Shown here in pieces: positions 353-19,095 of a stretch of 19,159 nt of DNA (within the stretch, counting starts at the first letter, position 1; each line of letters starts with the position of its first letter). The DNA comes from Pirellulales bacterium (GTDB lineage: Bacteria; Planctomycetota; Planctomycetia; Pirellulales; Thermoguttaceae). The DNA lies in contig JAFGPV010000015.1 of NCBI GenBank assembly GCA_016936015.1, forward strand, positions 1 through 19,159, in the 5' to 3' direction. Under the pieces are notes generated by a model, which worked only from the letters and a program-made list of their open reading frames with translations, was not told the origin of the DNA and searched no databases. A program made the translations under genes and the position numbers.

Positions 353-1687
353 ATGATCCGCAGGGAAACCAGGACCGGCATTGAGTATTCGGCCGTCGAA
401 TTGGGCGGAGCGCGGCACGTCTTTGCCGCCGCGGCTGCCCAACGGGACGGAACCTTCTACCAACAAGCCCGGGACGTCTTGGAGGGCGTGGAGAAGATGC
501 TCCGCGAGGAGGAGCTGCCCGGGTCGATCGTCATGCAGACGGTTTTCCTGGGCGATCCGGCCGATCGGGACGAGTGTCGGCGGATGATGGGCGATTTTCA
601 CGGCGCGGAACTGCCGGCGACGGCCTACGTTCTCCAGCCGCCCGGCGACGGAAAACGGCTGGCGCTGGAGGCTTGGAGCGTGGTACCCGGCCGGGGAAAG
701 GTCGAGATCGAGCGCGGCGGCGAGGAGTTGGCCGTCACCCGGCACGACGGGATCACCTGGATTCATCTGGCCCATCACCATCCCGGTTCTGCCGCGGAAC
801 CGCTCTACGATTCCGCGCTTTCCGCCTTTCAATCCGTCAGCGATCGGCTGACGGGGGCCGGTTTCGGCTTCGGTGACGTGGTTCGCACGTGGTGTTACCT
901 GGGCAATATCACAGCGGCGGAGGGCCCAACGCCGCGGTATCAACAGTTCAACCGGGCGCGGAGCGAGTATTATCAAGACGTACAGTTTGCCGCCGGCCTG
1001 CTTCCACAGGATTGCAAACAAGTCATGTATCCCGCCAGTTCGGGCGTTGGCGCCCGCGGCGGCGACCTGACCATCAGTTGCACTGCCCTGCGGACCGACC
1101 GCTCGGACGTGGCCCTCTTGCCACTGGAAAATCCCCGGCAGACCTCGGCCCATCAGTACGACTGCTCGTTCGGAGCGGAGAGTCCCAAGTTCGCCCGGGC
1201 CGTGGCAGTTACTCTCCCCTCTCCCATTGGGAGAGGGGCAAGGGGTGAGGGCGAAAAGGGGAATATGTCCAACTTTATAAACTCATTGGACTCCATCTCA
1301 ACAAGCATCCCTCACCCTAGCCCTCTCCCGGAGGGAGAGGGGAGTTACACGCTCATCTTCATCTCCGGCACCGCGAGCATCGTCACCTCGCAGTCACGGC
1401 ACCTCGACCAAGTGGAGCGGCAGACGCAGGAGACGTTCGACAATATCGAGGCGCTCATTTCGCCCGAGAACTTCTGCCGCAGCGGGTGTCCCGACCTTGG
1501 GGCGACCCTCGGCGACTTAGCCTTGGCCAGGGTATACCTCAAGCGTCCTGAAGATTACCCCAAAGTGCAAGCCCTCTGCCGGGAGCGGCTGGGCGCGTTG
1601 CCCGTGATCTACGCCATTTGCGACCTCTGCCGGCCGGAACTGCTGGTCGAGATCGAGGCGCTCGCCTTCGTGCGCCGGCGAGGTTAA
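353..1687 (+). CDS. Tandem RidA/YjgF (endoribonuclease L-PSP)-like domain protein, possibly a chorismatase FkbO/Hyg5/XanB2-like enzyme, carrying a 45-aa in-frame insertion
   Basis: 444-aa ORF. The C-terminal part (FARAVAV...[insert]...YTLIFISGTASI...RVYL...LCRPELLVEIEALAFV) follows the RidA pattern (PYSQAV..., SGQ, V..TVYL, PARS.VEV..LP.GA.VEIEAIA). The N-terminal half repeats the same pattern (MQTVFLGD...LPATAYVLQPP...LALEAW). The ISGTASI-type motif is reminiscent of the chorismatase subfamily. It is directly followed (8 nt) by the next gene. Confidence 0.65.
   Translation: MIRRETRTGIEYSAVELGGARHVFAAAAAQRDGTFYQQARDVLEGVEKMLREEELPGSIVMQTVFLGDPADRDECRRMMGDFHGAELPATAYVLQPPGDGKRLALEAWSVVPGRGKVEIERGGEELAVTRHDGITWIHLAHHHPGSAAEPLYDSALSAFQSVSDRLTGAGFGFGDVVRTWCYLGNITAAEGPTPRYQQFNRARSEYYQDVQFAAGLLPQDCKQVMYPASSGVGARGGDLTISCTALRTDRSDVALLPLENPRQTSAHQYDCSFGAESPKFARAVAVTLPSPIGRGARGEGEKGNMSNFINSLDSISTSIPHPSPLPEGEGSYTLIFISGTASIVTSQSRHLDQVERQTQETFDNIEALISPENFCRSGCPDLGATLGDLALARVYLKRPEDYPKVQALCRERLGALPVIYAICDLCRPELLVEIEALAFVRRRG
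1212..1344. repeat. MITE-like palindromic element with heptamer-periodic GC-rich inverted arms and an AT-rich core, inserted in-frame in the RidA-like CDS
   Basis: Left arm ctctcccctctccc att gggagagggg caa ggggtgaggg cgaaaagggg; AT-rich core aatatgtccaactttataaactcattggactccatctcaacaagc; right arm atccctcaccc tag ccctctcccggagggagaggg. Each arm is a small perfect hairpin, and there is inner complementarity ggggtgaggg/ccctcacccc. AGTTAC occurs on both flanks (1207-1212 and 1343-1348). Translated it gives TLPSPIGRGARGEGEKGNMSNFINSLDSISTSIPHPSPLPEGEGS, which sits where RidA proteins have only 4-6 loop residues. Confidence 0.5.
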
Positions 1688-3260: not shown

Positions 3261-4000
3261 GCCTCGTTGACATTCACATCTTGGACCATCCCTCCCCAGC
3301 CGCTCAAGATCGACGTGAAAAACCAACCCGGCTCAAAACTCCTCTTGCAAATGGGCCACTCCGCCTGTATAATGCACATTAGTTCACTCTCGCTCCTTGG
3401 CAATCCGATCCGAACACCCGGCCTTGGCGTGGAAAATAGGCGCCGACCCTCAACCACTCGGTTTGAAACTCCCGTTTCGGACCGATAAGAAACGATTCCC
3501 ATAAAAAACGTGGAAAAAACGAATTTTGTTGAGCAACACTTTACCCCGAAAGAACCAATTTCAATAAAAAACCACCCGACTGGGGACCCGACCGTGCATT
3601 TTTCGACTTTTGATGACCAACTGAGAAATCCCGGGTGCCCGCGATCGCTCCGCGATCGGGGCGGCCATGCCGCAAGAGATCATGGACCTGTTTTTTTGCA
3701 CCGTCCGAAACACCCCTTTCAGCACACCCCTGACGCACCTCAGGAATACTTGTGTTGAACAATTCGCTGAAGACACGGTAAAACACGGTTCACAAAACCC
3801 CACATTGTGCAAATAATCGAAAAAGAGGCGATTTATGGAAAATGCCATTCGCCGACTTTCAGAAACATCGTAAAAACACGGCTCTCTCGAACCACGGAGA
3901 AAAGTGAAATTATTCCCCGGAGGAAAATAATTTAGCGCGTCGTGCAGGTGGAATGTCAACACGTCCTTGTAGCAGGCACTCTCCCTGGAGGGAATGTTTC

Positions 4001-5347
4001 ATGCAATCCAACGACAAAACGGCGTCCTCGCGTTTGACGCGGCGGGAGGCCATCGGCCGCGGACTCTGCGGCGCGGCCGGATTGCTGCTGGCTGGCGGCT
4101 GGGAATCCCGCGCTTCGGCCGCCGCGCAACCGGTCAAGGCCAAGGCCCGGTCGGTCATCCAAATTTGGATGTGGGGCGGGCCGGCCCATCTGGATACCTT
4201 CGATCCCAAGCCCGCGGCGGGCTACGACTACTGCGGACCCTTCAGCAAGCCGATCCCCACCAACGTTCCCGGAATCACCATTGGCGAAATGCTCCCCCTG
4301 CTGGCCAAGCAGGCCGACAAGTATTCCATCATCCGCAGCATGACCCACGGCATCAACGCCCACGAAACGGCCGCCTACATCGTCCAGACCGGCCGGCCGC
4401 CGGGAGGCAGGCTGGTCTATCCGTCCGTCGGGGCCGTGGTTTCGCTGCTTAAGGGCTACGACGCCGGCTACCGCGGACTGATTCCCCCTTATATCGTCCT
4501 GACCGAACCTCAGGGCCGGTTCTCCGAGTCGGGATTCCTGGGCATCCGCTATAAACCCTTCGCCACGGGCGGCGATCCCGCCCAGGCCCGGTTCGTCGTC
4601 GAAGGCGTCGTCGCCCAGGGCGTCTCCGATGGGCAGCAGCGCAACCGCCGCGAACTGCTCCACAAGCTAAACACCCTCGGCAACGCCCTGAAGGACGATC
4701 CTGCCCTAAAGGCCCTGGACCAGGCCGAGCAGCAAGCCTACGACCTGATCCTCGGCGACGCGGGCAAGGTCTTCGACCTGGCCCGGGAGAAAGACGAGCT
4801 GCGAGAGCGCTACGGTCGGAACACCTTCGGGCAGTCCTGTCTCATGGCCCGCCGGCTGGTCGAACACGGCGTCCCGTTCGTGACGATCAATTACAAAGGT
4901 TGGGACACCCACAAGCAACATTTTCAGGCCATGCGCCGCAAGCTGCCCGAGATGGACAAGGGCCTGGCCGCCCTGCTGACGGACCTTGCGGACCGCGGAC
5001 TTTTAAGCGGCACCGTCGTCTGGTGGAGCGGCGAGTTCGGCCGCACGCCCCGGATCCAGTGGGAAGAGCCGTGGAACGGCGGCCGCGGCCACTACGGCCC
5101 GGTCTTCTCCGCGGTCGTCGCCGGCGGCGGATTCCAGGGCGGCCGCGTCGTCGGCGCCTCCGACGCCAAAGGCGAAACCGTCCAGGACCGGCCCGTCTAT
5201 CCCTGCGACCTGATCGCCGCCATCTACGAACTGCTCGGCATCGGCCCGGCCCATAAACTCCCCAATCCCGAAGGCCTCCCGCTGACGGCCGCTCCCGCCG
5301 CCGCCGAAGGCGTCCCCTCCGGCGGCCGCCTGAAAGAAATCTTGTAG
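4001..5347 (+). CDS. DUF1501 domain protein (sulfatase/alkaline-phosphatase-like fold) with a Tat signal
   Basis: ORF 3953-5347. The more likely start is the ATG at 4001, preceded by GGAGGG 8 nt upstream. It gives MQSNDKTASSRLTRREAIGRGLCGAAGLLLAGG, a twin-arginine signal. Body motifs typical of DUF1501 (IQIWMWGGPAHLDTFDPKP, GWDTH, WWSGEFGRTPR). Classic partner of DUF1549/DUF1553 proteins in Planctomycetes. Confidence 0.8.
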   Translation: MQSNDKTASSRLTRREAIGRGLCGAAGLLLAGGWESRASAAAQPVKAKARSVIQIWMWGGPAHLDTFDPKPAAGYDYCGPFSKPIPTNVPGITIGEMLPLLAKQADKYSIIRSMTHGINAHETAAYIVQTGRPPGGRLVYPSVGAVVSLLKGYDAGYRGLIPPYIVLTEPQGRFSESGFLGIRYKPFATGGDPAQARFVVEGVVAQGVSDGQQRNRRELLHKLNTLGNALKDDPALKALDQAEQQAYDLILGDAGKVFDLAREKDELRERYGRNTFGQSCLMARRLVEHGVPFVTINYKGWDTHKQHFQAMRRKLPEMDKGLAALLTDLADRGLLSGTVVWWSGEFGRTPRIQWEEPWNGGRGHYGPVFSAVVAGGGFQGGRVVGASDAKGETVQDRPVYPCDLIAAIYELLGIGPAHKLPNPEGLPLTAAPAAAEGVPSGGRLKEIL

Positions 5348-5610: not shown

Positions 5611-8600
5611 ATGTCTCGCAGCATTCTGAAAAAGTGGCGGCATTGTTCCTGCAAAACATCACATTCCAAGAAAAGGCCGCTTTGCGTGGAACTTCTCGAA
5701 CCAAGGATTGCGCTAAGCGGCGAGGGAGTAGTCGAATTGGCGGCGTCGCCCGGGGCGCCCGCCTGGGTTATCGAACCCTACGCCCTGAGCGACACGTCGA
5801 TCAGCATGACGGTTCAACAACAAAGCGGACTGGAATATTACTTCCACAATGTGACGGACACGAGTCACGACAGCGGATGGATTACCGGCGCCGCCGACCT
5901 GAACTACGTCACCTATGTGGACCAGAATCTGACGGCGGACGCGCCCTACAGATACGAGGTAAAGGCCCGCGACCCGAGCAGTCCTCTGTTGGAAAGCGCC
6001 TATTCGAGCGTAGGGCAGGTCAGCACAATGAACACGATGGCGGCGGCGGTCCAGCACCTGGCCAACCAGATCCGCGCCGTCGAGACGTTTTCAAATCCCG
6101 AAAATCCGGGTCAGATCACGGGCCAGCTTGTGAAGAACGGGTACCCGAATCCCCAAGCGATCAATAATAATACGACCTGCGAAAAATCGGGCACCAACGG
6201 CCTGAGCGCCTACCCGGGGGACGGCCGCAACACACCCGGCGCCTTCCAGGTCGATCTGGCCAACATGGGCCAGGTCGATCCGAACAACCCGGTGATCGAG
6301 TCGTTCGGCCAATGGAAGGGGACTGCCGCCTCCGCCAAGACCGCCAGCATGTATGACACACAGATTGCGCTGAGCAAGCAAACGCTCCATGATTATTTCC
6401 ACCTGGAGGTCGATGCCGCCGGGCTGATAACCCACATCGAGGCCCCGGCCGCCTCCGTCTTCCTGCACGACGACGCGTTGGCTACATCGACGACCTGGAA
6501 CCCGGACGGCAATCCGCTGGTCGGCCTCCACATCGACAACTTTCAGCCGGAGCAACTGTCGCTCTACCTGGCCGGCCGGGACCCTGACGACGGCATCACG
6601 GGCGTGACCGATACGCGGACCAGCCCGGCCGCGGTGATGCACGACGCGGAAGCGCTCCAGGATCAAGTCTCGAAAAGTTTCATGTGGGCGACCTATCAGA
6701 AGTACCTGACGCACGATTCCTACAAAGCCACGTTCGCCAAGGTTGTGAACCTCTACGGCGCCACGTTGGAGATCACCTCCTCGCAAAAGGCGAACATCTT
6801 CGGCATCAATCAGGGAGACATGTTCAAGTGCCGGCTCACGCCGGCCTTCGTCCTGGGCGGGGCCTACGTCTCGGGCGAGGGAAACATGTTCAACCTGCTC
6901 ACGGCGCTGGTGCAGGCGGATGACACGGGCGCCGGCACATGGTCGATCAACGGCGAGACGATCACTTTCCAGCGGAAAGGCACCGGCACTTCGGCCCAGG
7001 ATAAAGTCTTCACCGTCGACAAGACGCCGATGAACAACGCCGAAACCTATCCGTCGATCTTCCACTACGGGGCCGTCCTGTCGCCGTACGGCATGGTGGA
7101 TTATAAGGCCGATCCGACGCAGTTCAATCCCGCCGACTTGATCGAGATCAGCGAGAATAACAAAACGACGGCGTGGGGCGTCACGGGCAGGACTATCAAG
7201 AATGGACTGGGCTACGAGCGATTGACATACATCCAGACCGTCTCAGAAACGCAGGTATTAACCGAAGGCGGACGCTATAACTATTTGGATCTCGAACAGG
7301 GGAAGCTGACGCTGACGGGCAAGGGCGATTTCGTGATCATGCCGGCGGTGTTCCCCAAGCTCACGACGGCCGGATACATGAAACCGTCGAACAACAGCCA
7401 GACCATCGCCAAAGACCAGACCATCGACGTCTCGAATTTCTTCAATACGAAGCTTCTGAACAACAACGAAGAACTTTTAAACAGCTCGTTCTACGTGTGG
7501 TGGGACAAGGACCAGCAATCGCACGTTGTCCGGGTGAACGATCCCAGTTTCGATTTTTCCCAAGTTGACAACGGCCTTTTCCTCTATATCGCGCCGGCCG
7601 CGCAAACCCCGGAGGGCCTCGAAGGCATGAAAGCGGCCATCAAAGATTGGGCGTTCGGCGGCGGGGGCACGACGTTCGAAAAATCCGCCCGGGTGATGCT
7701 GGCCACAAAGGACGTCTTCGGAAAGCCCGGATCGGCCGATGCATGGGCGGCACACTTCACCACCCAGCGCGCCGACGTGGGGACCGGCGAGATCGACGCC
7801 TCGATGACGGAAGGAAAAGTGCTGATCGTGCTGGACGGCACGATCACCACCGTCAAGCTCGGCTCGGGCTGCAACATCGTGCTCACCTCGACGCAAAACA
7901 CCACCCAAAAGACCTTCGCGCTCAATCCCAATGCCAAGATCAGCCCTACGCTCGACATCCGGTCGGGGGATATCATCGACTGGAAACTGCTCCCCCAGGA
8001 CCTGACGTGGACGGCCGGCACGGCCCTAACGTACGACTGCCATACGGAAAGGCAGCCCAACCTCCGATACAGCTATTTTGCCGGATGGACCGGCACGGGA
8101 TCGGCAACCGCGACGTTCCAGGCCATCGTTCGCGCCAACGGGAACACGGGCACCAGCGATCCCGTGGAAATCGTCAACAACGCCCTGAAACCGTTGGGAG
8201 TAACCTTGAATCGGGCGTCGGCACAGGCGGAGCAAACCGGCGCCTCACTGCTCAACTACACGGTGGTGTTCAGCGAGGCAGTGTCCGATTTCACTGAGAA
8301 CGACGTGATTCTCAGCGGACCGCCGGAGACGATTGACGGGGCTCGCATCGTGGTCGCCAATCCCAGCGGAGACAAAATCACTTATTCCGTCGCCATCACG
8401 CTGAAGGACACCGCCGCCGCGGGAGTGATAATCGGCACGATCGGCGCCGGAGAGGTCCACGATCTCGAAGGATTCTCCAACCTTGCTTCAACCGGAACCT
8501 CGAATGTCAACTACATGCCCAACGCAATCACCGGTCAAGGCAACTCGAACGTCGGTCCGGCCTTGGCCGCTGCGACCCGGGGAGGCGAGCCCCTGCCGGG

Positions 8601-9531: not shown

Positions 9532-11111
9532 AAGCGATACTCCAGCCCGAAGCTGACGCCCTGCGCCCAGTAATCGCTCATGGTGAAGGAAAACGCAGGT
9601 TGCAGGGAACCGGTGGGCGTTTCGGGAGGCAACTGCGAGGCGTTCGTGTCAAGCTGGTCGGCGGGCCGCGCGACGCGGCTCCAATAGAGAAAGGCATAGC
9701 CGATTCTCGCATGGAATCGTGGAGTCAACGCATAGCCAAGTGCAACTCCAATTTCCGGCAGCACGGCGAATTGGTTCTGGGTGTACTCCCCGATGTTGGT
9801 CTCTTGCGCCAGCAGGTCGCCGGTGAACGTCGCGGTTCCTCCGCCCGGCACCGTAGTCGTCGTCATGCCGTCAATCAGCACGCGCGAGCGGGTGCTGCCC
9901 AGTCCGAGTTTCAGCAGCGCCTCCCACGACCAACGGCCGACGTACTCTCGATACATGACGCCTAGCTCGACGCCGTTGAACTGATTCTGGGTATCGAACA
10001 GGTCATAGAGGCTCTTGGTGGTGCCGACGACAATCGGCCCCTGCGACCGGGTCCATTCCGAGAACTGGTCGATTCGCACGCTCTCGTCCAACTGGGCGAA
10101 ACGCCAGCCGAAAAGAAAATCCATTCGGTCGCATTCTCGCTGAAAGAGATTGCGCCGCAACAACACCTCCACGGCCTGAAGCTGGCTTGTCGCCTCGCAA
10201 TCGAGCGATCCTCCCAAGAAGTCCGGGTGCGCAGCCAACATGGCGCTTTGGACACTAAATTGGGCGTCGTAGAATGGACGAGCGAGGATGGGCCTCTCCT
10301 GGCTGGAGGCGGAAAACCGGGTCGTCTCCTTTCCGAGGCCCAAGTAACCCGCCTCCACCCCTACGCATTGACAGTCGTCGAACCAATAACCCATGGAACC
10401 ACGCCAGCCCGAGTTCGCTTCGGTGTTAACCATGCCGTTGCCAAAAAGGATGCTCGTGCCCGGTTGCCCCAACACGCCGGACACACTCGGATCCGTGCCC
10501 TCCGGACTGGTTGTCACCAGCGGCGGCAAGGCGCTTCCTTGCGTCCACCAGAGCAAATACTCTCCGCGAACCCACAGGCGATTGTGCCAGATGAAACAGC
10601 ATGGGCGGCAAGTTCCACAGGGATAGCACTCCGCAGGACAACACTCGGCGATACATCCGTCGCCGTCAGGCATGACGTCGGCCGTCTCCTCCGAGCAGCA
10701 CGGCTGCCTCGATAGCCGGACGGGCGACATCGTCTCGTCATCAATCGTGGTTTGAAATCCTGCTTTAACAACCCGGGACGTTCGATGGGCAGGCGATCGC
10801 CGATTGGCAGAATCTCGAGAGTTCGTCGCAGTCGATTTACTGTGTTCCTGTCTCGGGACTGCATTGCGCGAACCGCGATAGGGAGTGGGCGAGTGCCGTC
10901 GAACCACTTCGCGAGATTGCAGCGCCTGCCATAACGGAGTCAAGGGACCGCTATTGTCGGTCTGGGCGAGAACCGGCCATGCATGAAGCAAGATGCCGAT
11001 GAGACTTGTTGACACGATCGCCCTGCCAACAAAGGGAGTTCCAATCGGCCAAACACGCAACTGCGGACATGCCAACTTGACCTTGACCATAGAATAGATG
11101 TCCCTATTCAC
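9528..11111 (-). CDS. BBP7-family-like outer-membrane beta-barrel protein with a Cys-rich N-terminal segment
   Basis: 527-aa ORF with a signal-peptide-like N-terminus (...AIVSTSLIGILLHAWPVLAQ). Cys cluster CCSEETADVMPDGDGCIAECCPAECYPCGTCRPCCFIW followed by RLWVRGEYLLWW. The long C-terminal part has alternating hydrophobic residues and ends ...FGLEYRF, with a C-terminal aromatic typical of OM barrels. Its stop overlaps the stop of the convergent giant gene (CTAG at 9528-9531). Confidence 0.65.
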   Translation of the reverse strand: MNRDIYSMVKVKLACPQLRVWPIGTPFVGRAIVSTSLIGILLHAWPVLAQTDNSGPLTPLWQALQSREVVRRHSPTPYRGSRNAVPRQEHSKSTATNSRDSANRRSPAHRTSRVVKAGFQTTIDDETMSPVRLSRQPCCSEETADVMPDGDGCIAECCPAECYPCGTCRPCCFIWHNRLWVRGEYLLWWTQGSALPPLVTTSPEGTDPSVSGVLGQPGTSILFGNGMVNTEANSGWRGSMGYWFDDCQCVGVEAGYLGLGKETTRFSASSQERPILARPFYDAQFSVQSAMLAAHPDFLGGSLDCEATSQLQAVEVLLRRNLFQRECDRMDFLFGWRFAQLDESVRIDQFSEWTRSQGPIVVGTTKSLYDLFDTQNQFNGVELGVMYREYVGRWSWEALLKLGLGSTRSRVLIDGMTTTTVPGGGTATFTGDLLAQETNIGEYTQNQFAVLPEIGVALGYALTPRFHARIGYAFLYWSRVARPADQLDTNASQLPPETPTGSLQPAFSFTMSDYWAQGVSFGLEYRF

Positions 11112-11650: not shown

Positions 11651-11724
11651 GTCCCCGTAGCTCAATTGGATAGAGCGTCGGCCTCCGGAGCCGAAGGTTA
11701 CAGGTTCGAATCCTGTCGGGGATA
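11651..11724 (+). tRNA. tRNA-Arg(CCG)
   Basis: GTCCCCG TA GCTC AATTGGATA GAGC G TCGGC CTCCGGA GCCGA AGGTT ACAGG TTCGAAT CCTGT CGGGGAT A. Canonical cloverleaf with U8, A14, GG and a GTTCGAATC T-loop. G1.U72 wobble at the top of the acceptor stem. CCA is not encoded. Sits in a low-GC intergenic island. Confidence 0.85.
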
Positions 11725-15812: not shown

Positions 15813-15883
15813 AGACGCCGGTGGGAGTCGAACCCACTTCGATCGGGTTGCAGCCGATTGCCGCGCCGTCTGGCTCCAGCGTC
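15813..15883 (-). tRNA. tRNA-Cys(GCA), atypical D region
   Basis: GACGCTG GA GCC AGACGGCGC GGC A ATCGG CTGCAAC CCGAT CGAA GTGGG TTCGACT CCCAC CGGCGTC U. Anticodon GCA and discriminator U73 fit the Cys identity. G8 and a 3-bp D-stem are unusual. One U.G pair in the acceptor stem. Confidence 0.5.
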
Positions 15884-15931
15884 GTTCGCTTGTTACGGCC
15901 ACTATGTTTCATTGGCCGCACGCTATTAAAA

Positions 15932-16005
15932 TGTCCTCGCCAGGAGTCGAACCTGGTCTTCGACCTTCGCAGGGTCGCGTGCGTAGTCCGCCACACTCCG
16001 AGGAC
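15932..16005 (-). tRNA. tRNA-Arg(GCG), unusual anticodon
   Basis: GTCCTCG GA GTGT GGCGGACTAC GCAC G CGACC CTGCGAA GGTCG AAGA CCAGG TTCGACT CCTGG CGAGGAC A. G8 instead of U8. Same architecture as the neighbouring Arg(TCG) gene. Confidence 0.5.
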
Positions 16006-16047
16006 GGGTTTTCCTTTCTAGGGCCGGTTTGAAACCGGCCCCACGAG

Positions 16048-16119
16048 TACCCTGCCGAGGAATCGAACCTCGTCTGGCAGATTCGAAGTCTGCCGTGCGA
16101 TCCGGCACACTCGCAGGGC
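16048..16119 (-). tRNA. tRNA-Arg(TCG)
   Basis: GCCCTGC GA GTGT GCCGGATC GCAC G GCAGA CTTCGAA TCTGC CAGA CGAGG TTCGATT CCTCG GCAGGGT A. G1.U72 and G8. Confidence 0.55.
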
Positions 16120-16149
16120 GTGTTTTCATTGTCTTTTGCTGATTTCCTA

Positions 16150-16178
16150 TTGCTCTTCACAAGGGGATTGGTATAATG
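16150..16178 (+). promoter_or_regulatory. Sigma70-like promoter with an extended -10 (TTGCTC - 17 nt - TGgTATAAT)
   Basis: ttgctc at 16150-16155, a 17-nt spacer, tataat at 16173-16178 preceded by TGG. Points away from the tRNA array orientation, towards the Zn-ribbon mini-ORF. Confidence 0.4.
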
Positions 16179-16380
16179 GCTGAAAATTACATTCGGCAGG
16201 AGTCGGATCGCTTTATCCTTTCGGAACCGAGCACTCCGAAAGTTCGCTCTCTTGGCTCAACTGATGCGACAGTCATCGGCTTCTCCCAATCCTCAGGCGC
16301 GTCCCCCGCCGTTTGCATAACATCTTATTTGTGATTGGATTTGTGCGTCTTCGACCAAGGTTTTTAGCTGCGCTCATGTT

Positions 16381-16683
16381 GTGCCGCTCCCTTCAGACCT
16401 TTTGGGCATAAGCCACCCAAAAGTATTTCTCTCGGCTTACGTAATGTTCTATTGCCGTTTGTGCGGGCGTCTGGTCCCTCCGCGGACTCGTGCTGTTCGT
16501 AAGGTTCTTCAAACGCGATTAAAGCGGTATCCTTATCGCTCGAAAGCGAATCATGTCGTCCGGATCGAACCCAACGGAAAAAGGAAAAAGGTATACGTGG
16601 ATGACCCCGGCGGCGAAGGCCGGGAAATCGTCCACGAGGTACTGGTTTGTCCTCAATGTGCCAAATTCAATGATCCATCCTAA
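16381..16683 (+). CDS. Small, very basic Zn-ribbon protein (two CxxC pairs). The start is uncertain: GTG at 16381 or ATG at 16444.
   Basis: 80-100 aa: ...MFYCRLCGRLVPPRTRAVRKVLQTRLKRYPYRSKANHVVRIEPNGKRKKVYVDDPGGEGREIVHEVLVCPQCAKFNDPS. CRLC and CPQC at either end. A promoter lies upstream and a strong intrinsic terminator follows the TAA directly. The unit fills the gap between two minus-strand tRNA genes. No SD. Confidence 0.45.
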   Translation: MPLPSDLLGISHPKVFLSAYVMFYCRLCGRLVPPRTRAVRKVLQTRLKRYPYRSKANHVVRIEPNGKRKKVYVDDPGGEGREIVHEVLVCPQCAKFNDPS

Positions 16684-16696
16684 AAGTGTCGCTCTA

Positions 16697-16731
16697 CCTT
16701 GCCGCATAAAACGCGGCAAGGTTTTTTCTTT
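16697..16731 (+). terminator. Rho-independent terminator (CCTTGCCGC-ATAAAAC-GCGGCAAGG + TTTTTTCTTTT)
   Basis: 9-bp GC-rich stem, 7-nt loop, T-tract. It lies 14 nt after the stop of the Zn-ribbon ORF and 17 nt before the next minus-strand tRNA. Confidence 0.6.
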
Positions 16732-16747
16732 TCCTTACCGATTGGAA

Positions 16748-16819
16748 TATCCCGACCTGGAGTCGAACCAGGACATGGACCTTCGGAGGGTCCGATGCAC
16801 TCCACTACACTATCGGGAC
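16748..16819 (-). tRNA. tRNA-Arg(CCG), second copy in the window, array version
   Basis: GTCCCGA TA GTGT AGTGGAG TGCAT C GGACC CTCCGAA GGTCC ATGT CCTGG TTCGACT CCAGG TCGGGAT A. G1.U72. Weak D-stem with two G.U pairs. Confidence 0.5.
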
Positions 16820-16904
16820 TCCTCACCAGAGCCGACGACTGGATTTGCACCAGCATGATGCGGTTTACAAAACCGCTGCCTTGCTGTTCGGCCACGTCGG
16901 CAAG

Positions 16905-16974
16905 CAGGAGTGCAAGGATTCGAACCCTGTGGGACGGCTTTGGAGACCGTCGGCTCTCCCAGGAGCACACTCCT
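16905..16974 (-). tRNA. tRNA-Trp(CCA), compressed D-arm
   Basis: AGGAGTG TG CTC CTGGGA GAG CCG ACGGT CTCCAAA GCCGT CCCA CAGGG TTCGAAT CCTTG CACTCCT G. The anticodon arm is almost identical to bacterial tRNA-Trp. Discriminator G73. 70 nt, with a 3-bp D-stem, a 6-nt D-loop and 3 nt where position 26 should be. Confidence 0.5.
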
Positions 16975-17015
16975 GTAATGCCCCCGACCGTTTGGCCGGG
17001 GGCACGGCGTAACGA

Positions 17016-17612
17016 CTACTTCTGCAACTCAACGTTCCAGTACACTTCGCTAACGAACTTCGACCAGCTTGCGATCCGCAGGCTGTGGTCGGCGTACAAC
17101 GGTTTCCATACCGGTCGGACCGGCTTGCGGCGCAACCGCATTCGGGCCTGCTCCGGCGTGCGGTCGGCCTTACGCTTGTTGCAGGCCATGCAGGCCAGCA
17201 CGCAGTTCTCCCAACTCGACACGCCGCCCTGCGACCGCGGCAGGACGTGGTCGATGGTCAGCTCCTCGCTGCCCGGCTGGGCACCGCAGTACTGACAGGT
17301 GCTGTGATCCCGCTTGAACACGTTCCGGCGACTGAAGGTCACCGCGGCCCGCGGCAACCGGTCATAGCCGGTCAGCGTAACCACCTCCGGCACGCGGAGT
17401 CGAAAGCGGACCGCCTGGACGAACGGCTCGTCGGCGCGCGGCATGAGCCTCAACCAATCCTCCCAGGTGTAGAGTTGGAAGTCGTCGGGATCGACCACGC
17501 GGGCCGACTCGTTCCACAACAGGACCAAGGCCCGTGCCACCGTGGCGACGTGGACCGGCTGCCAGTTGCGGTTCAGGACCAGCGTGGGACGCCGAAGCAC
17601 ACTCCGTACCAT
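17016..17612 (-). CDS. HNH endonuclease
   Basis: The ORF extends to 17690, but the likely start is M27 at 17612 (GGGAG 8 nt upstream), giving MVRSVLRRPTLVLNRNWQP... HNH signature CQYCG...LTIDHVLPRSQGG...WENCVLACMACNKRK. About 198 aa. Embedded in the tRNA array in the same orientation. Confidence 0.8.
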   Translation of the reverse strand: MVRSVLRRPTLVLNRNWQPVHVATVARALVLLWNESARVVDPDDFQLYTWEDWLRLMPRADEPFVQAVRFRLRVPEVVTLTGYDRLPRAAVTFSRRNVFKRDHSTCQYCGAQPGSEELTIDHVLPRSQGGVSSWENCVLACMACNKRKADRTPEQARMRLRRKPVRPVWKPLYADHSLRIASWSKFVSEVYWNVELQK

Positions 17613-17700
17613 GATTATTCTCCCTACATATTGGTTCACTCTCATCAAGCGAATCCGGACTTTCGTCATTCGACATTTGAACTTCGTCATTTTCCTCCAG

Positions 17701-17775
17701 GGTGTCTGGCCGGAGTCGAACCGGCACCCTCTGGTTCACAGCCAGCCGTGCAGGAACCGCTACACCACAGACACC
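17701..17775 (-). tRNA. tRNA-His(GTG) with encoded G-1
   Basis: G GTGTCTG TG GTGT AGCGGTTCCT GCAC G GCTGG CTGTGAA CCAGA GGGT GCCGG TTCGACT CCGGC CAGACAC C. The extra 5' G opposite discriminator C73 is the His hallmark. Confidence 0.8.
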
Positions 17776-17781
17776 GTCAGT

Positions 17782-17864
17782 AGGGATTAGAGGCGAGGGA
17801 TTAGGGATTAGTAATGACACCACATCGGGTTTTGCTAATCCCTAATCCCCAATCCCTAAATCCC
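17782..17864. repeat. Hairpin element with heptamer-repeat arms, (A)GGGATT units, and a 23-nt loop
   Basis: agggattagaggcgagggattagggattag - taatgacaccacatcgggttttg - ctaatccctaatccccaatccctaaatccc. Imperfect inverted arms of about 30 nt built from tandem 7-mers. Sits between tRNA-His and tRNA-Arg(TCT). Confidence 0.6.
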
Positions 17865-17873
17865 TTTCACCAG

Positions 17874-17945
17874 CACCCCGACCAGGACTCGAACCCGGAA
17901 CTCCTCGTTAGAACCGAGGCATGATGTCCGTTTCACCATCGGGGC
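17874..17945 (-). tRNA. tRNA-Arg(TCT)
   Basis: GCCCCGA TG GTGA AACGGACA TCAT G CCTCG GTTCTAA CGAGG AGTT CCGGG TTCGAGT CCTGG TCGGGGT G. G1.U72 and G32. Confidence 0.55.
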
Positions 17946-17948
17946 AAG

Positions 17949-18038
17949 CGGAAGGCATGGGATTCGAACCCACATGGCCCCTTACGGGGCCGCACGGTTT
18001 AGCAAACCGGCCCGGCAAACCGTATCCGGCTACCTTCC
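17949..18038 (-). tRNA. tRNA-Ser(GCT), type II
   Basis: GGAAGGT AG CCGG ATACGGTTTG CCGG G CCGGT TTGCTAA ACCGT GCGGCCCCGTAAGGGGCCA GTGGG TTCGAAT CCCAT GCCTTCC G. Long variable-arm hairpin. Discriminator G. Only 3 nt separate it from the previous gene. Confidence 0.65.
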
Positions 18039-18050
18039 GAAGTTTCACAG

Positions 18051-18123
18051 TGATCCCGGACGGAATTGAACCGTCACTTTCCTGGTTGTCACCCAGGTGT
18101 CTTTACCGTTAGACCACGGGATC
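18051..18123 (-). tRNA. tRNA-Val(GAC)
   Basis: GATCCCG TG GTCT AACGGTAA AGAC A CCTGG GTGACAA CCAGG AAAGT GACGG TTCAATT CCGTC CGGGATC A. Fully canonical. Confidence 0.85.
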
Positions 18124-18133
18124 GTCATCGCAA

Positions 18134-18209
18134 TGACGAGAGCGGGAGTCGAACCCGCAAAATCACGAGGCTCTCGACCTCGCCGCTTTTCCAGTTTGCG
18201 TACCTCGTC
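18134..18209 (-). tRNA. Leu-like tRNA (anticodon GAG) with a type-II D-arm but a short variable region and C33
   Basis: GACGAGG TA CGC AAACTGGAAAA GCG G CGAGG TCGAGAG CCTCG TGATTTT GCGGG TTCGACT CCCGC TCTCGTC A. Discriminator A73 (Leu identity). 7-nt variable region instead of a long arm. Paralog of the gene at 18641-18716. Confidence 0.4.
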
Positions 18210-18216
18210 CTAAGTT

Positions 18217-18282
18217 GCGGGTCCGGGGGTTGCACCCGGTGAGCAGAGCTTATGAAGCTCCACTGGGCACTGGCCGACCCGC
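18217..18282 (-). pseudogene. tRNA-like element with CAT anticodon loop, no D-arm, non-standard T-loop
   Basis: Reverse complement GCGGGTC...GGAGC TTCATAA GCTCT...CCGGG TGCAACC CCCGG ACCCGC. Perfect 7-bp acceptor pairing GCGGGTC/GACCCGC. Anticodon loop TTCATAA. The D region CCAGTGCCCAGT cannot form a D-stem. 66 nt. Confidence 0.25.
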
Positions 18283-18293
18283 GGCGTATTCAG

Positions 18294-18363
18294 TTGCAGG
18301 CCCCGGTATCGAACCGGGCGCACCGGCCTTATGGGAGCCAGTTGGGCACCTGCCGCGCCTGCA
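18294..18363 (-). tRNA. tRNA-Met/Ile2-like (anticodon CAT) with a degenerate D-arm and C33
   Basis: TGCAGGC GC GGCAGGTGCCCAAC TGGCT CCCATAA GGCCG GTGCG CCCGG TTCGATA CCGGG GCCTGCA A. Perfect acceptor and T-arm. No pairable D-stem. 70 nt. Confidence 0.3.
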
Positions 18364-18370
18364 GCGACAG

Positions 18371-18454
18371 TGACCAAGGGGAGATTCGAACTCCCAAGCC
18401 CTTTAAGGCACGACGTTCTGAGCGTCGCGCGTCTTCCAGTTGCGCCACTTGGTC
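18371..18454 (-). tRNA. tRNA-Leu(CAG), type II
   Basis: GACCAAG TG GCG CAACTGGAAGA CGC G CGACG CTCAGAA CGTCG TGCCTTAAAGGGCTT GGGAG TTCGAAT CTCCC CTTGGTC A. Canonical. Confidence 0.8.
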
Positions 18455-18464
18455 ATTTCTTCAG

Positions 18465-18538
18465 TGGCCCGTGCGGGAATTGAACCCGCCTTTCCGGCTT
18501 GAGGGGCCAGCGTCCTAAGGCCGATAGACGAACGGGCC
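18465..18538 (-). tRNA. tRNA-Glu(CTC), C33
   Basis: GGCCCGT TC GTCT ATCGGCCTTA GGAC G CTGGC CCCTCAA GCCGG AAAG GCGGG TTCAATT CCCGC ACGGGCC A. The D-arm closely resembles E. coli tRNA-Glu. Confidence 0.6.
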
Positions 18539-18548
18539 GGTTTTTCAG

Positions 18549-18635
18549 TGGGTCGTGAAGGAATTGAACCTCTCGTCGTCCACCTCACTTCTTTTGCGAC
18601 AACGGCTTTACGGGCCGCCGTGAGGAACACAACCC
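18549..18635 (-). tRNA. tRNA-Tyr-like (anticodon GTA) with a truncated D region and an oversized variable arm
   Basis: GGGTTGT GT TCCTCACG GCGGC CCGTAAA GCCGT TGTCGCAAAAGAAGTGAGGTGGACGAC AGAGG TTCAATT CCTTC ACGACCC A. 87 nt. Only 8 nt where the D-arm should be. Weak T-stem. C33. Confidence 0.35.
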
Positions 18636-18640
18636 TCCAG

Positions 18641-18716
18641 TGGCACAGACGGGAGTCGAACCCGCAAAATCACGAAGGTTTGAGCTTGGCCGCTTTTCCG
18701 ATTTGCGTACCGTGCC
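18641..18716 (-). tRNA. Leu-like tRNA (anticodon CAA), type-II D-arm but short variable region
   Basis: GGCACGG TA CGC AAATCGGAAAA GCG G CCAAG CTCAAAC CTTCG TGATTTT GCGGG TTCGACT CCCGT CTGTGCC A. Near-identical backbone to the gene at 18134-18209. Discriminator A73. Confidence 0.4.
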
Positions 18717-18730
18717 TCACTTTTCCAAAG

Positions 18731-18805
18731 CGCCCTCGACGGGATTTGAACCCGCGATCTCCTGCGTGACAGGCAGGCGAGCACTCCAAGCTGCTCCACA
18801 AGGGC
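18731..18805 (-). tRNA. tRNA-Asp(GTC)
   Basis: GCCCTTG TG GAGC AGCTTGGAGT GCTC G CCTGC CTGTCAC GCAGG AGATC GCGGG TTCAAAT CCCGT CGAGGGC G. Canonical. Discriminator G73. Confidence 0.85.
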
Positions 18806-18810
18806 ATGAT

Positions 18811-18923
18811 CGGAGGGATGAAGGATGAAGGATGAGGGATGAGGAAACTCAACCATATCCAGATCAATCCTTCATTCATCCTTCATCCCTCATCCTTCAT
18901 CCCTCATCCTTCATCCCTCATCC
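18811..18923. repeat. Hairpin element made of tandem heptamers GGATGA(A/G) and their complement TCATCC(C/T), with a 24-nt loop
   Basis: Left arm ggagggatgaaggatgaaggatgagggatgagg. Loop aaactcaaccatatccagatcaat. Right arm ccttcattcatccttcatccctcatccttcatccctcatccttcatccctcatcc, about 7.5 heptamer units. Same architecture as the element at 17782-17864. Confidence 0.6.
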
Positions 18924-18925
18924 AG

Positions 18926-18998
18926 TGGTCCTGGGCGGACTCGAACCGCCGATCGTCACCTTGTAAGGGTGCTGCCGTCGCCGCTGGGCCACAGGACC
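18926..18998 (-). tRNA. tRNA-Val(TAC)
   Basis: GGTCCTG TG GCCC AGCGGCGA CGGC A GCACC CTTACAA GGTGA CGATC GGCGG TTCGAGT CCGCC CAGGACC A. Confidence 0.75.
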
Positions 18999-19009
18999 AT
19001 AATTCAAAG

Positions 19010-19095
19010 CGGAAGCCGTGGGACTCGAACCCATAAGCGGCTGCTCGCCGCCACCTGTTTTCAAGACAGGCTCCTCATCCGGCCGGATGACTTCC
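19010..19095 (-). tRNA. tRNA-Ser(TGA), type II
   Basis: GGAAGTC A TCC GGCCGGATGA GGA G CCTGT CTTGAAA ACAGG TGGCGGCGAGCAGCCGCT TGGG TTCGAGT CCCA C GGCTTCC G. The acceptor and anticodon arms are nearly identical to E. coli tRNA-Ser(UGA). Only one nucleotide lies between the acceptor and the D-stem. Confidence 0.65.

Follow-up and report, generated by a model that had tools for sequence, protein, structure and literature searches.

Where does the extra 45-residue segment in an otherwise intact planctomycete gene come from, and does it do anything for its host? The gene lies at positions 353–1687 (+) of contig JAFGPV010000015.1, here called the window, which is the entire 19,159-bp contig of a Pirellulales metagenome-assembled genome (MAG). 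It encodes a 444-residue protein (P0001, JXB10_01495) that is chorismatase (FkbO/Hyg5)-like with a C-terminal RidA/YjgF domain. Pfam recognizes FkbO_Hyg5-like_N (PF21168) and Ribonuc_L-PSP (PF01042) in this protein, the nearest solved folds for its AlphaFold2 (AF2) model are the chorismatases 5AG3, 5A3K, and 4BPS, and its more than 1300 homologues are typically ∼403 residues long. All invariant alignment columns are kept in the 444-residue protein, leaving the gene intact apart from the segment, which reads ...KFARAVAV-TLPSPIGRGARGEGEKGNMSNFINSLDSISTSIPHPSPLPEGEGS-YTLIFISGTASI..., with 45 residues separating V from Y. An earlier inspection of the DNA letters alone (the sequence-only reading) had placed these 45 residues between FARAVAV and the next strand and traced them to hairpin-rich DNA, and the coordinates, the sequence, and the predicted fold all bear this out. 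As described below, the segment is an insertion, and the arms of the palindromic DNA that encodes it are recognizable as a known bacterial repeat, BoxC.

The segment is an insertion in the host gene. It is missing from 19 of 19 aligned protein orthologues (49–62% identity, mostly ∼403 residues), and the PKF...SGTAS distance is 24 residues in 74 of 74 genome orthologues, compared to 65 residues in the window; named Planctomycetota and Verrucomicrobiota genomes supplied 80 loci, of which an anchor pattern captured these 74. An invariant 24 versus 65 residues means that, on balance, 41 codons were gained. Two native codons gave way to the 43 codons of the element; one of the two encoded an invariant Gly, whose GGG now comes from the element's terminal G-run. 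Such insertion and deletion junctions inside conserved codons let the ancestral state be read exactly. In the AF2 model, built with the orthologue alignment (predicted template modelling score 0.85), residues 292–328 have predicted local distance difference test values below 50 and are flanked by confident strands at residues 283–288 and 332–337, so that the insert is predicted to form a disordered surface loop with the fold left intact. Both the absence of the segment from orthologues and a loop that the fold tolerates had been proposed in the sequence-only reading; the first holds up, and the model supports the second.

The inserted DNA is a composite palindromic element of 129 nt (1214–1342, +; pairing reaches 1211–1345), equal to 43 codons (LPSP...PEGEG), in which two G-rich modules face each other across an AT-rich spacer. 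The left module (1216–1251, +) consists of CCCCTCTCCC (1216–1225), ATT, GGGAGAGGGG (1229–1238), CAA, and GGGGTGAGGG (1242–1251), and its sense strand carries four G-tracts. The right module (1309–1342, −) reads CCCCTCTCCC TCC GGGAGAGGG CTA GGGTGAGGG on the minus strand. The spacer between them (1252–1308, no strand assigned) is 57 nt long, encodes EKGNMSNFINSLDSISTSI, folds into a small internal hairpin of GTCCAA (1267–1272) with TTGGAC (1286–1291), and has a GC content of 38.6% versus 64.5% for the rest of the open reading frame (ORF). With GGGAGAG/GGGCAAG/GGGTGAG heptamers at 1229–1249, the GC-rich, heptamer-periodic arms and AT-rich core that had been described from the letters are confirmed. 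In Watson–Crick folding, the region forms a single long hairpin, which reaches −83 kcal/mol as RNA (z = −7.15; none of 200 shuffles did as well) and, as DNA, z = −5.45 for 1200–1355 and z = −6.49 for 1211–1345, again with no shuffle folding equally well. Each strand of the window has one occurrence of the inner arm pattern GGAGAGGG-N2-6-GGGTGAGGG, two in all, against 0.00 expected from shuffles. One of the six reading frames of the element is free of stop codons, namely the one in use. An Rfam E-value scan of the element returned only sub-threshold microRNA-like hairpin matches, and thus no known RNA family applies. A terminator scan found none, nor a terminator-like tail after the hairpin, and the accompanying promoter scan picked out one weak promoter-like site on the minus strand of the spacer. 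An intein or intron is out of favour, given no Rfam match and no splicing motifs.

From their match to the published consensus, we identify the arms of the insert as the well-described BoxC/PIT/TM_ECO repeat, which the sequence-only reading had overlooked. The names BoxC, PIT (potential intrastrand triplex), TM_ECO, and HPG1/HPG2 denote one repeat (Holder et al. 2015, PMC4666352; Kaplan et al. 2016, PMC5100583; BoxC and PIT as cited there). We applied the published pattern, 5'-CCCTCNCCC N3-6 GGGNGAGGG N3 GGGNGAGGG-3' with at most one stem mismatch (PMC4666352). The right arm matches the TM_ECO pattern exactly on the minus strand. The left arm matches with 10-nt stems, its second loop becoming 5 nt if 9-nt stems are demanded; the expression used for it was a TM_ECO-type pattern with loop 2 relaxed to 2–6 nt. 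The modules at 1216–1251 (+) and 1309–1342 (−) form an inverted pair, and the heptamer periodicity of the arms is simply the G3-N3-4 spacing of the BoxC motif.

Published work describes 3610 occurrences of the TM_ECO pattern in 262 proteobacterial genomes and an abundance of related G/C-rich motifs in cyanobacteria, with both single and palindromic TM arrangements known (PMC4666352; PMC5100583). The E. coli TM motif is reported to be always intergenic and to have no promoter or terminator activity; it has no transposase link and is associated with local instability, and its palindromic pairs in E. coli are prone to small deletions that retain the hairpin (PMC4666352; PMC5100583). In vitro, the motif shows triplex formation and switching between G-quadruplex (G4) and hairpin, with no triplex signal in vivo (PMC4666352; PMC5100583).

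In E. coli genomes we found a median of 7 motif places per genome, and the intergenic copy between mrcB and hrpB has exactly the architecture of the window element. The three E. coli inverted pairs that were read (hrpB-mrcB, ygfF-gcvP, and alx-sstT) have spacers of 18–29 nt; in K-12, the 29-nt spacers of ygfF-gcvP and alx-sstT are similar as judged by eye, which gives the composite the look of a repeated unit in that genome. The outer flank GGGGAC/GGGGAG is common to the E. coli and planctomycete copies of the module. The inner arm motif is also present in at least 120 IMG/VR contigs, one of them enterobacterial. Among the IMG/VR matches listed, nearly all have CCCTC(T/G)CCC 3–10 nt upstream, forming a hairpin with GGGAGAGGG, and ∼10 are inverted pairs around unrelated spacers. 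The IMG/VR contigs that carry BoxC modules (L001–L120) are classed as viral and range from 36% to 74% GC, and some may be prophage flanks, such as L005, which carries rpoD; the literature describes BoxC/TM_ECO without phage association (PMC4666352; PMC5100583).

The window element thus shares with BoxC/PIT/TM_ECO the module itself (CCCTCNCCC, loop, GGGNGAGGG, N3, GGGTGAGGG), the inverted pair with a spacer, the lack of a known transposase on either side, and, if the deletions proposed below occurred, a collapse by internal deletion that keeps the hairpin. The two differ in setting and dimensions. The E. coli copies are intergenic, whereas the window copy lies in frame in coding sequence, within ORF 353–1687; the window host is a planctomycete, whereas TM_ECO is catalogued in Proteobacteria, with related motifs in Cyanobacteria. 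The window spacer is AT-rich and, at 57 nt, longer than those of the three E. coli pairs that were read (18–29 nt); stems of the left arm measure 10 nt. What is new here is BoxC in coding sequence, in Planctomycetota, and recurring; the element family itself is already known.

As the sequence-only reading had anticipated, the element has relatives elsewhere, and besides the E. coli pairs they include copies in planctomycete genes for cytochromes and TreZ-like proteins. The orthologous loci from Planctomycetota and Verrucomicrobiota (1.12 Mb) contain 15 complete modules, several of them in long open frames. In the clearest example, a gene for a multihaem cytochrome with tetratricopeptide repeats, confirmed as real by Pfam, has an empty site in loci L125 and L128, an in-frame gain of 12 residues from one 36-nt module in L126, and an in-frame gain of 24 residues from a module plus a second hairpin in L130. 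Sequence identity groups L126 with L128 and L130 with L125, so that at least two events are needed to account for the presence pattern. The module shared by L126 and L130 is identical at 34 of 36 nt, including 12 of 12 third positions versus 73.7% in the rest of the gene, a weak signal (p about 0.03).

Two side observations concern these loci. In L130 a second, unrelated palindrome, GGGACAGTCCC-ATTTTCG-TTGRCA-CGAAAAT-CGGGACAGTCCC, which encodes the peptide ...SPIFVxTKIGTVP..., lies in frame twice (7630–7672 and 10656–10698; proteins P0008 and P0012), in the cytochrome gene and in the L130 orthologue of the window's gene, where it occupies a different site. At the end of contig L169 (5445–5534), a tandem array (GGGAGAGGGGAGATT)n comes after a BoxC module and runs off the contig edge; a long ORF, DNA methyltransferase-like in translation as judged by eye only, has the module at its 5' end.

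Another gene family provides a further parallel to the window element. An exhaustive HMMER protein search with the 46-residue insert gave 19 hits, most of which are spurious ORFs over arrays of BoxC pairs. P0131, however, is a fragment of TreZ (maltooligosyltrehalose trehalohydrolase) with an in-frame insert of 43 residues that is 59% identical to the window's and has the same frame and length; it shares its JGI sample (3300075153) with P0002, the nearest orthologue of the window protein. In an alignment of TreZ homologues, the full composite is present in P0131 and P0139, P0140 has only LPEGEG, P0141 has LPKGEG beside an unrelated palindrome, and the other homologues are empty. At the DNA level, P0139 carries a 129-nt composite with a 57-nt spacer (L207, 3571–3699), and the LPEGEG of P0140 (L209) is encoded by a solo hairpin, TCTCTCCC-GGA-GGGAGAGGGGAC. 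The arms of the L207 and window composites are identical at ∼34 of 38 and ∼31 of 34 positions (by eye, ungapped), with the TAG loop of the right arm kept, versus 20 of 57 positions in the ungapped spacer. Homology of the two spacers was considered and rejected, as their similarity does not exceed chance in a gapped comparison.

Exact searches for the window element gave no match to the central 23 nt of its spacer in viral_contigs, and no match to its arm-spacer-arm junctions in genome_contigs, a collection that does not include the window's own MAG. In L207 the TreZ-like ORF of P0139 loses its similarity to homologues downstream of the composite (3700–3807), lacks the C-terminal ILPHELLVF, and is split from an ORF for the alpha-amylase domain (1918–2973); the element may mark a point of rearrangement or pseudogenisation. 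In L208 the gene for P0141 (3001–3786) contains a third palindrome type, TCCGGCACACTCCGTGTGCCG ... CGGCACACGGAGTGTGCCGGA, in frame and adjoining a solo BoxC hairpin. With two palindrome types in one TreZ loop, this site has been struck by more than one element family.

The solo hairpins suggest how composites may decay. In the multiple alignment, P0002 (62% identity) reads SLPVGEGN where the window reads TLPSP...PLPEGEGS, and in both gene families, the window's and TreZ, the full form adds 41 codons net, compared to 4 for the short LPxGEG form. A metagenome scan for the DNA of P0002 yielded only relatives at 47% and 28% identity. Composites may enter coding loops and later shrink, by in-frame internal deletions, until a solo hairpin of 18 nt is left. 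For the window copy, a 111-nt deletion between CTCCC at 1214–1218 and CTCCC at 1325–1329 would produce T-LPEGEG-SY, in frame. Read from its protein, the LPxGEG of P0002 would be such a hairpin scar, and its DNA is predicted to be a CTCCCN-GTN-GGNGAGGG solo hairpin. The scar model fits the published loss of internal parts by palindromic TM pairs with the hairpin kept, and we infer that insertion came before collapse. As for the insertion itself, native GGG-AGT in the window falls within the module's outer flank, GGGGA(C/G)T, and the flank resembles CGGGAC at the empty cytochrome site; this is a hint, though no evidence, of microhomology-guided or site-preferring insertion.

Taken together, these data make it probable that a composite member of the BoxC family sits in DNA for a β-hairpin turn of the RidA domain, where it yields a tolerated, disordered loop and is passenger DNA that contributes nothing useful. 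The composite would have landed in the DNA encoding a β-hairpin turn of the C-terminal RidA-like domain, and its Gly/Pro/Ser-rich product would be tolerated as a disordered surface loop, the insert itself being selfish or structure-prone passenger DNA. It would persist because only the stop-free frame is used, the length is a multiple of three, and the product is tolerated. Several points weigh against this reading. A hairpin seed followed by expansion is an alternative candidate for the order of change, and the putative scar in P0002 is read from protein sequence alone. The 19-kb window, which covers only part of the genome, holds no second copy; the exact spacer is absent from viral_contigs and genome_contigs, so that mobility of the composite as a unit is only putative; and likeness of the spacer to that of the TreZ composite falls to chance level with gaps. 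Neither a target-site duplication nor a cognate transposase was identified in the window, seven other ORFs included. Finally, an mRNA hairpin of −83 kcal/mol might impair expression, so that the loop is harmless only putatively.

A stronger version of events, which we regard as possible but rather doubtful, is that in Planctomycetota composites are inserted into coding loops actively and with site preference, and are kept thereafter at the level of the DNA. It draws on the near-invariant arms and fixed spacer length (57 nt; 129 nt in total) of composites whose spacer sequence and host protein diverge, and on the occurrence of full (+41), scar (+4), and empty states at the same sites in a distribution at odds with the gene tree. 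If it is true, a sequence- or structure-specific machinery copies and trims BoxC modules, and the coding polymorphisms would be the first clean filled and empty junctions from which the spread of BoxC could be read.

It is improbable, in our estimate, that the insert is a functional nucleic-acid element, acting either in the mRNA, where a hairpin or G-quadruplex would slow translation or guide RNase cleavage, or in the DNA, as a triplex/G4 switch that promotes local recombination. The extreme stability of the predicted hairpin, the four sense-strand G-tracts of the left arm, and the in-vitro triplex formation and G4/hairpin switching described above would suit such a role, as would the near-invariant arms of the window and L207 composites (∼34/38 and ∼31/34, versus 20/57 in the spacer) and the 12 of 12 third positions in the L126/L130 modules, versus 73.7% in the rest of the gene. 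However, the statistical case for arm conservation is weak (p about 0.03), published tests for promoter, terminator, and in-vivo triplex signals were negative, and the window hairpin has neither a terminator-like tail behind it nor an Rfam match above noise. The unrelated host genes and sites (chorismatase-like, TreZ, and cytochrome) are better suited by opportunistic insertion.

A classical MITE (miniature inverted-repeat transposable element), moved in trans by an insertion sequence (IS) transposase and leaving AGTTAC as its target-site duplication, is a very improbable explanation. The window element resembles MITEs in size (below 300 bp), in arms of 36–38 nt that act as terminal inverted repeats, and in its AT-rich core, and AGTTAC flanks the palindrome. 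Related Pirellulales MAGs also hold a true MITE-like repeat of ∼128 bp with one BoxC module, although in these the module rides in a MITE that has its own, other terminal repeats. The flanking copies, however, do not behave as a duplication. The left AGTTAC (1207–1212, +) lies in native codons GCA-GTT-ACT (A-V-T), where orthologues have V-T or V-A, and the right one (1343–1348, +) in AGT-TAC (S-Y), where orthologues have G-S/D-Y/F; both copies thus consist of native codons conserved in orthologues. They lie 136 nt apart, so that removal of the element with one AGTTAC shifts the frame. This agrees with an earlier remark that the spacing is not a multiple of three and that the repeat may be coincidental, and AGTTAC is rejected as a target-site duplication on these two grounds. 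The right AGT also continues the usual outer flank of the module, GGGGA(C/G)T, and a 6-mer match near each end is expected in ∼2% of cases by a rough estimate; the left AGTTAC is probably a coincidental direct repeat. A Pfam scan of the seven other ORFs in the window found no transposase domain, in line with a literature that reports no transposase association, and within the window the element has neither a credible target-site duplication nor a matching IS.

In the related MAGs, the MITE-like repeat combines terminal inverted repeats TAAGAGCTTATCCCAAAAG with an AT-rich core and contains a single BoxC module. It occurs at ∼4110–4240 and ∼13180–13310 of L131 (a 21-kb locus) and at ∼4500–4610 of L165, which shares the terminal repeat.

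That the repeat was misspliced into the contig during assembly or binning is extremely improbable. Dispersed repeats are a classic source of misassembly, and this contig is from a MAG, but the host gene resumes in frame across both junctions without loss of any invariant residue, and comparable in-frame insertions occur in independent assemblies from other projects (L126, L130, L207, and P0131).

In-frame insertions of this kind have precedents in other repeat families. Rickettsia palindromic elements (RPEs) and intragenic GTAG/CGTC-tagged repetitive extragenic palindromic (REP) elements are small in-frame palindromic repeats that leave the gene open and add tens of residues absent from orthologues; their dimers are common, and the same gene is struck at different sites across lineages (as reviewed in Di Nocera et al. 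2013, PMC3733652). The window palindrome likewise lies in an open ORF and is absent from orthologues, and in this it behaves as the RPEs and intragenic REPs do. It has no sequence relationship to them, and membership of the GTAG/CGTC REP superfamily is rejected, as neither tetranucleotide flanks the arms as a tag. In addition, the BoxC module stays nearly identical from phylum to phylum, unlike the RPE and REP families, which are lineage-restricted. The composite also resembles REPINs and bacterial interspersed mosaic elements, which are mobilised by REP-associated tyrosine transposases (RAYTs), in having two inverted palindromic units around a spacer that together form one long hairpin, but it has no GTAG-type guide tetranucleotide, no RAYT gene was seen, and each of its units has an extra third G-stem outside the hairpin.

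At the level of the enzyme the result is ordinary, the insert being most likely a tolerated loop; its interest lies with the repeat. Few non-coding motifs are conserved across bacteria as strongly as BoxC/PIT/TM_ECO, and the family now has a broader range and context than had been described. The coding-region polymorphisms offer a practical handle on BoxC biology. For annotation, it is relevant that peptides such as LPSPxGRGxGGEG and PHPxPLPxGEG in planctomycete proteins can be recognized as repeat-derived and not as functional motifs.

The sequence-only reading had also suggested that the insert and two hairpins between tRNA genes of the window belong to a single family, and this proposal fails. 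The inter-tRNA hairpins, at 17781–17865 and 18813–18923, are inverted arrays of tandem heptamers according to Tandem Repeats Finder (TAGGGAT x4.4 / CTAATCC x4.3 and GAGGGAT x4.6 / TTCATCC x7, respectively). They fold well as DNA (z ∼ −6.3 to −6.4), but they show no match to the BoxC arm motif with up to 3 mismatches, and neither has a terminal CCCTCNCCC-loop-GGGNGAGGG hairpin module. The insert and the inter-tRNA hairpins share only a general style, with G-rich periodic arms and a low-GC loop. The latter are reminiscent of the cyanobacterial short tandemly repeated repetitive (STRR) heptamer repeats.

The surrounding region (15813–19095, −) is a dense array of 17 tRNA genes, and a further tRNA-Arg gene lies at 11651–11724. 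Within the array is an ORF for an HNH endonuclease (17019–17690, −; Pfam HNH, E = 1.9e-14). At the other end of the window, 48 nt 5' of the ATG of the chorismatase-like gene, lies an inverted repeat (241–305) with 29-nt arms that are 86% complementary and a 7-nt loop, which holds the nested palindromes GACAGGCA..TGCCTGTC and GACAGACA..TGTCTGTC.

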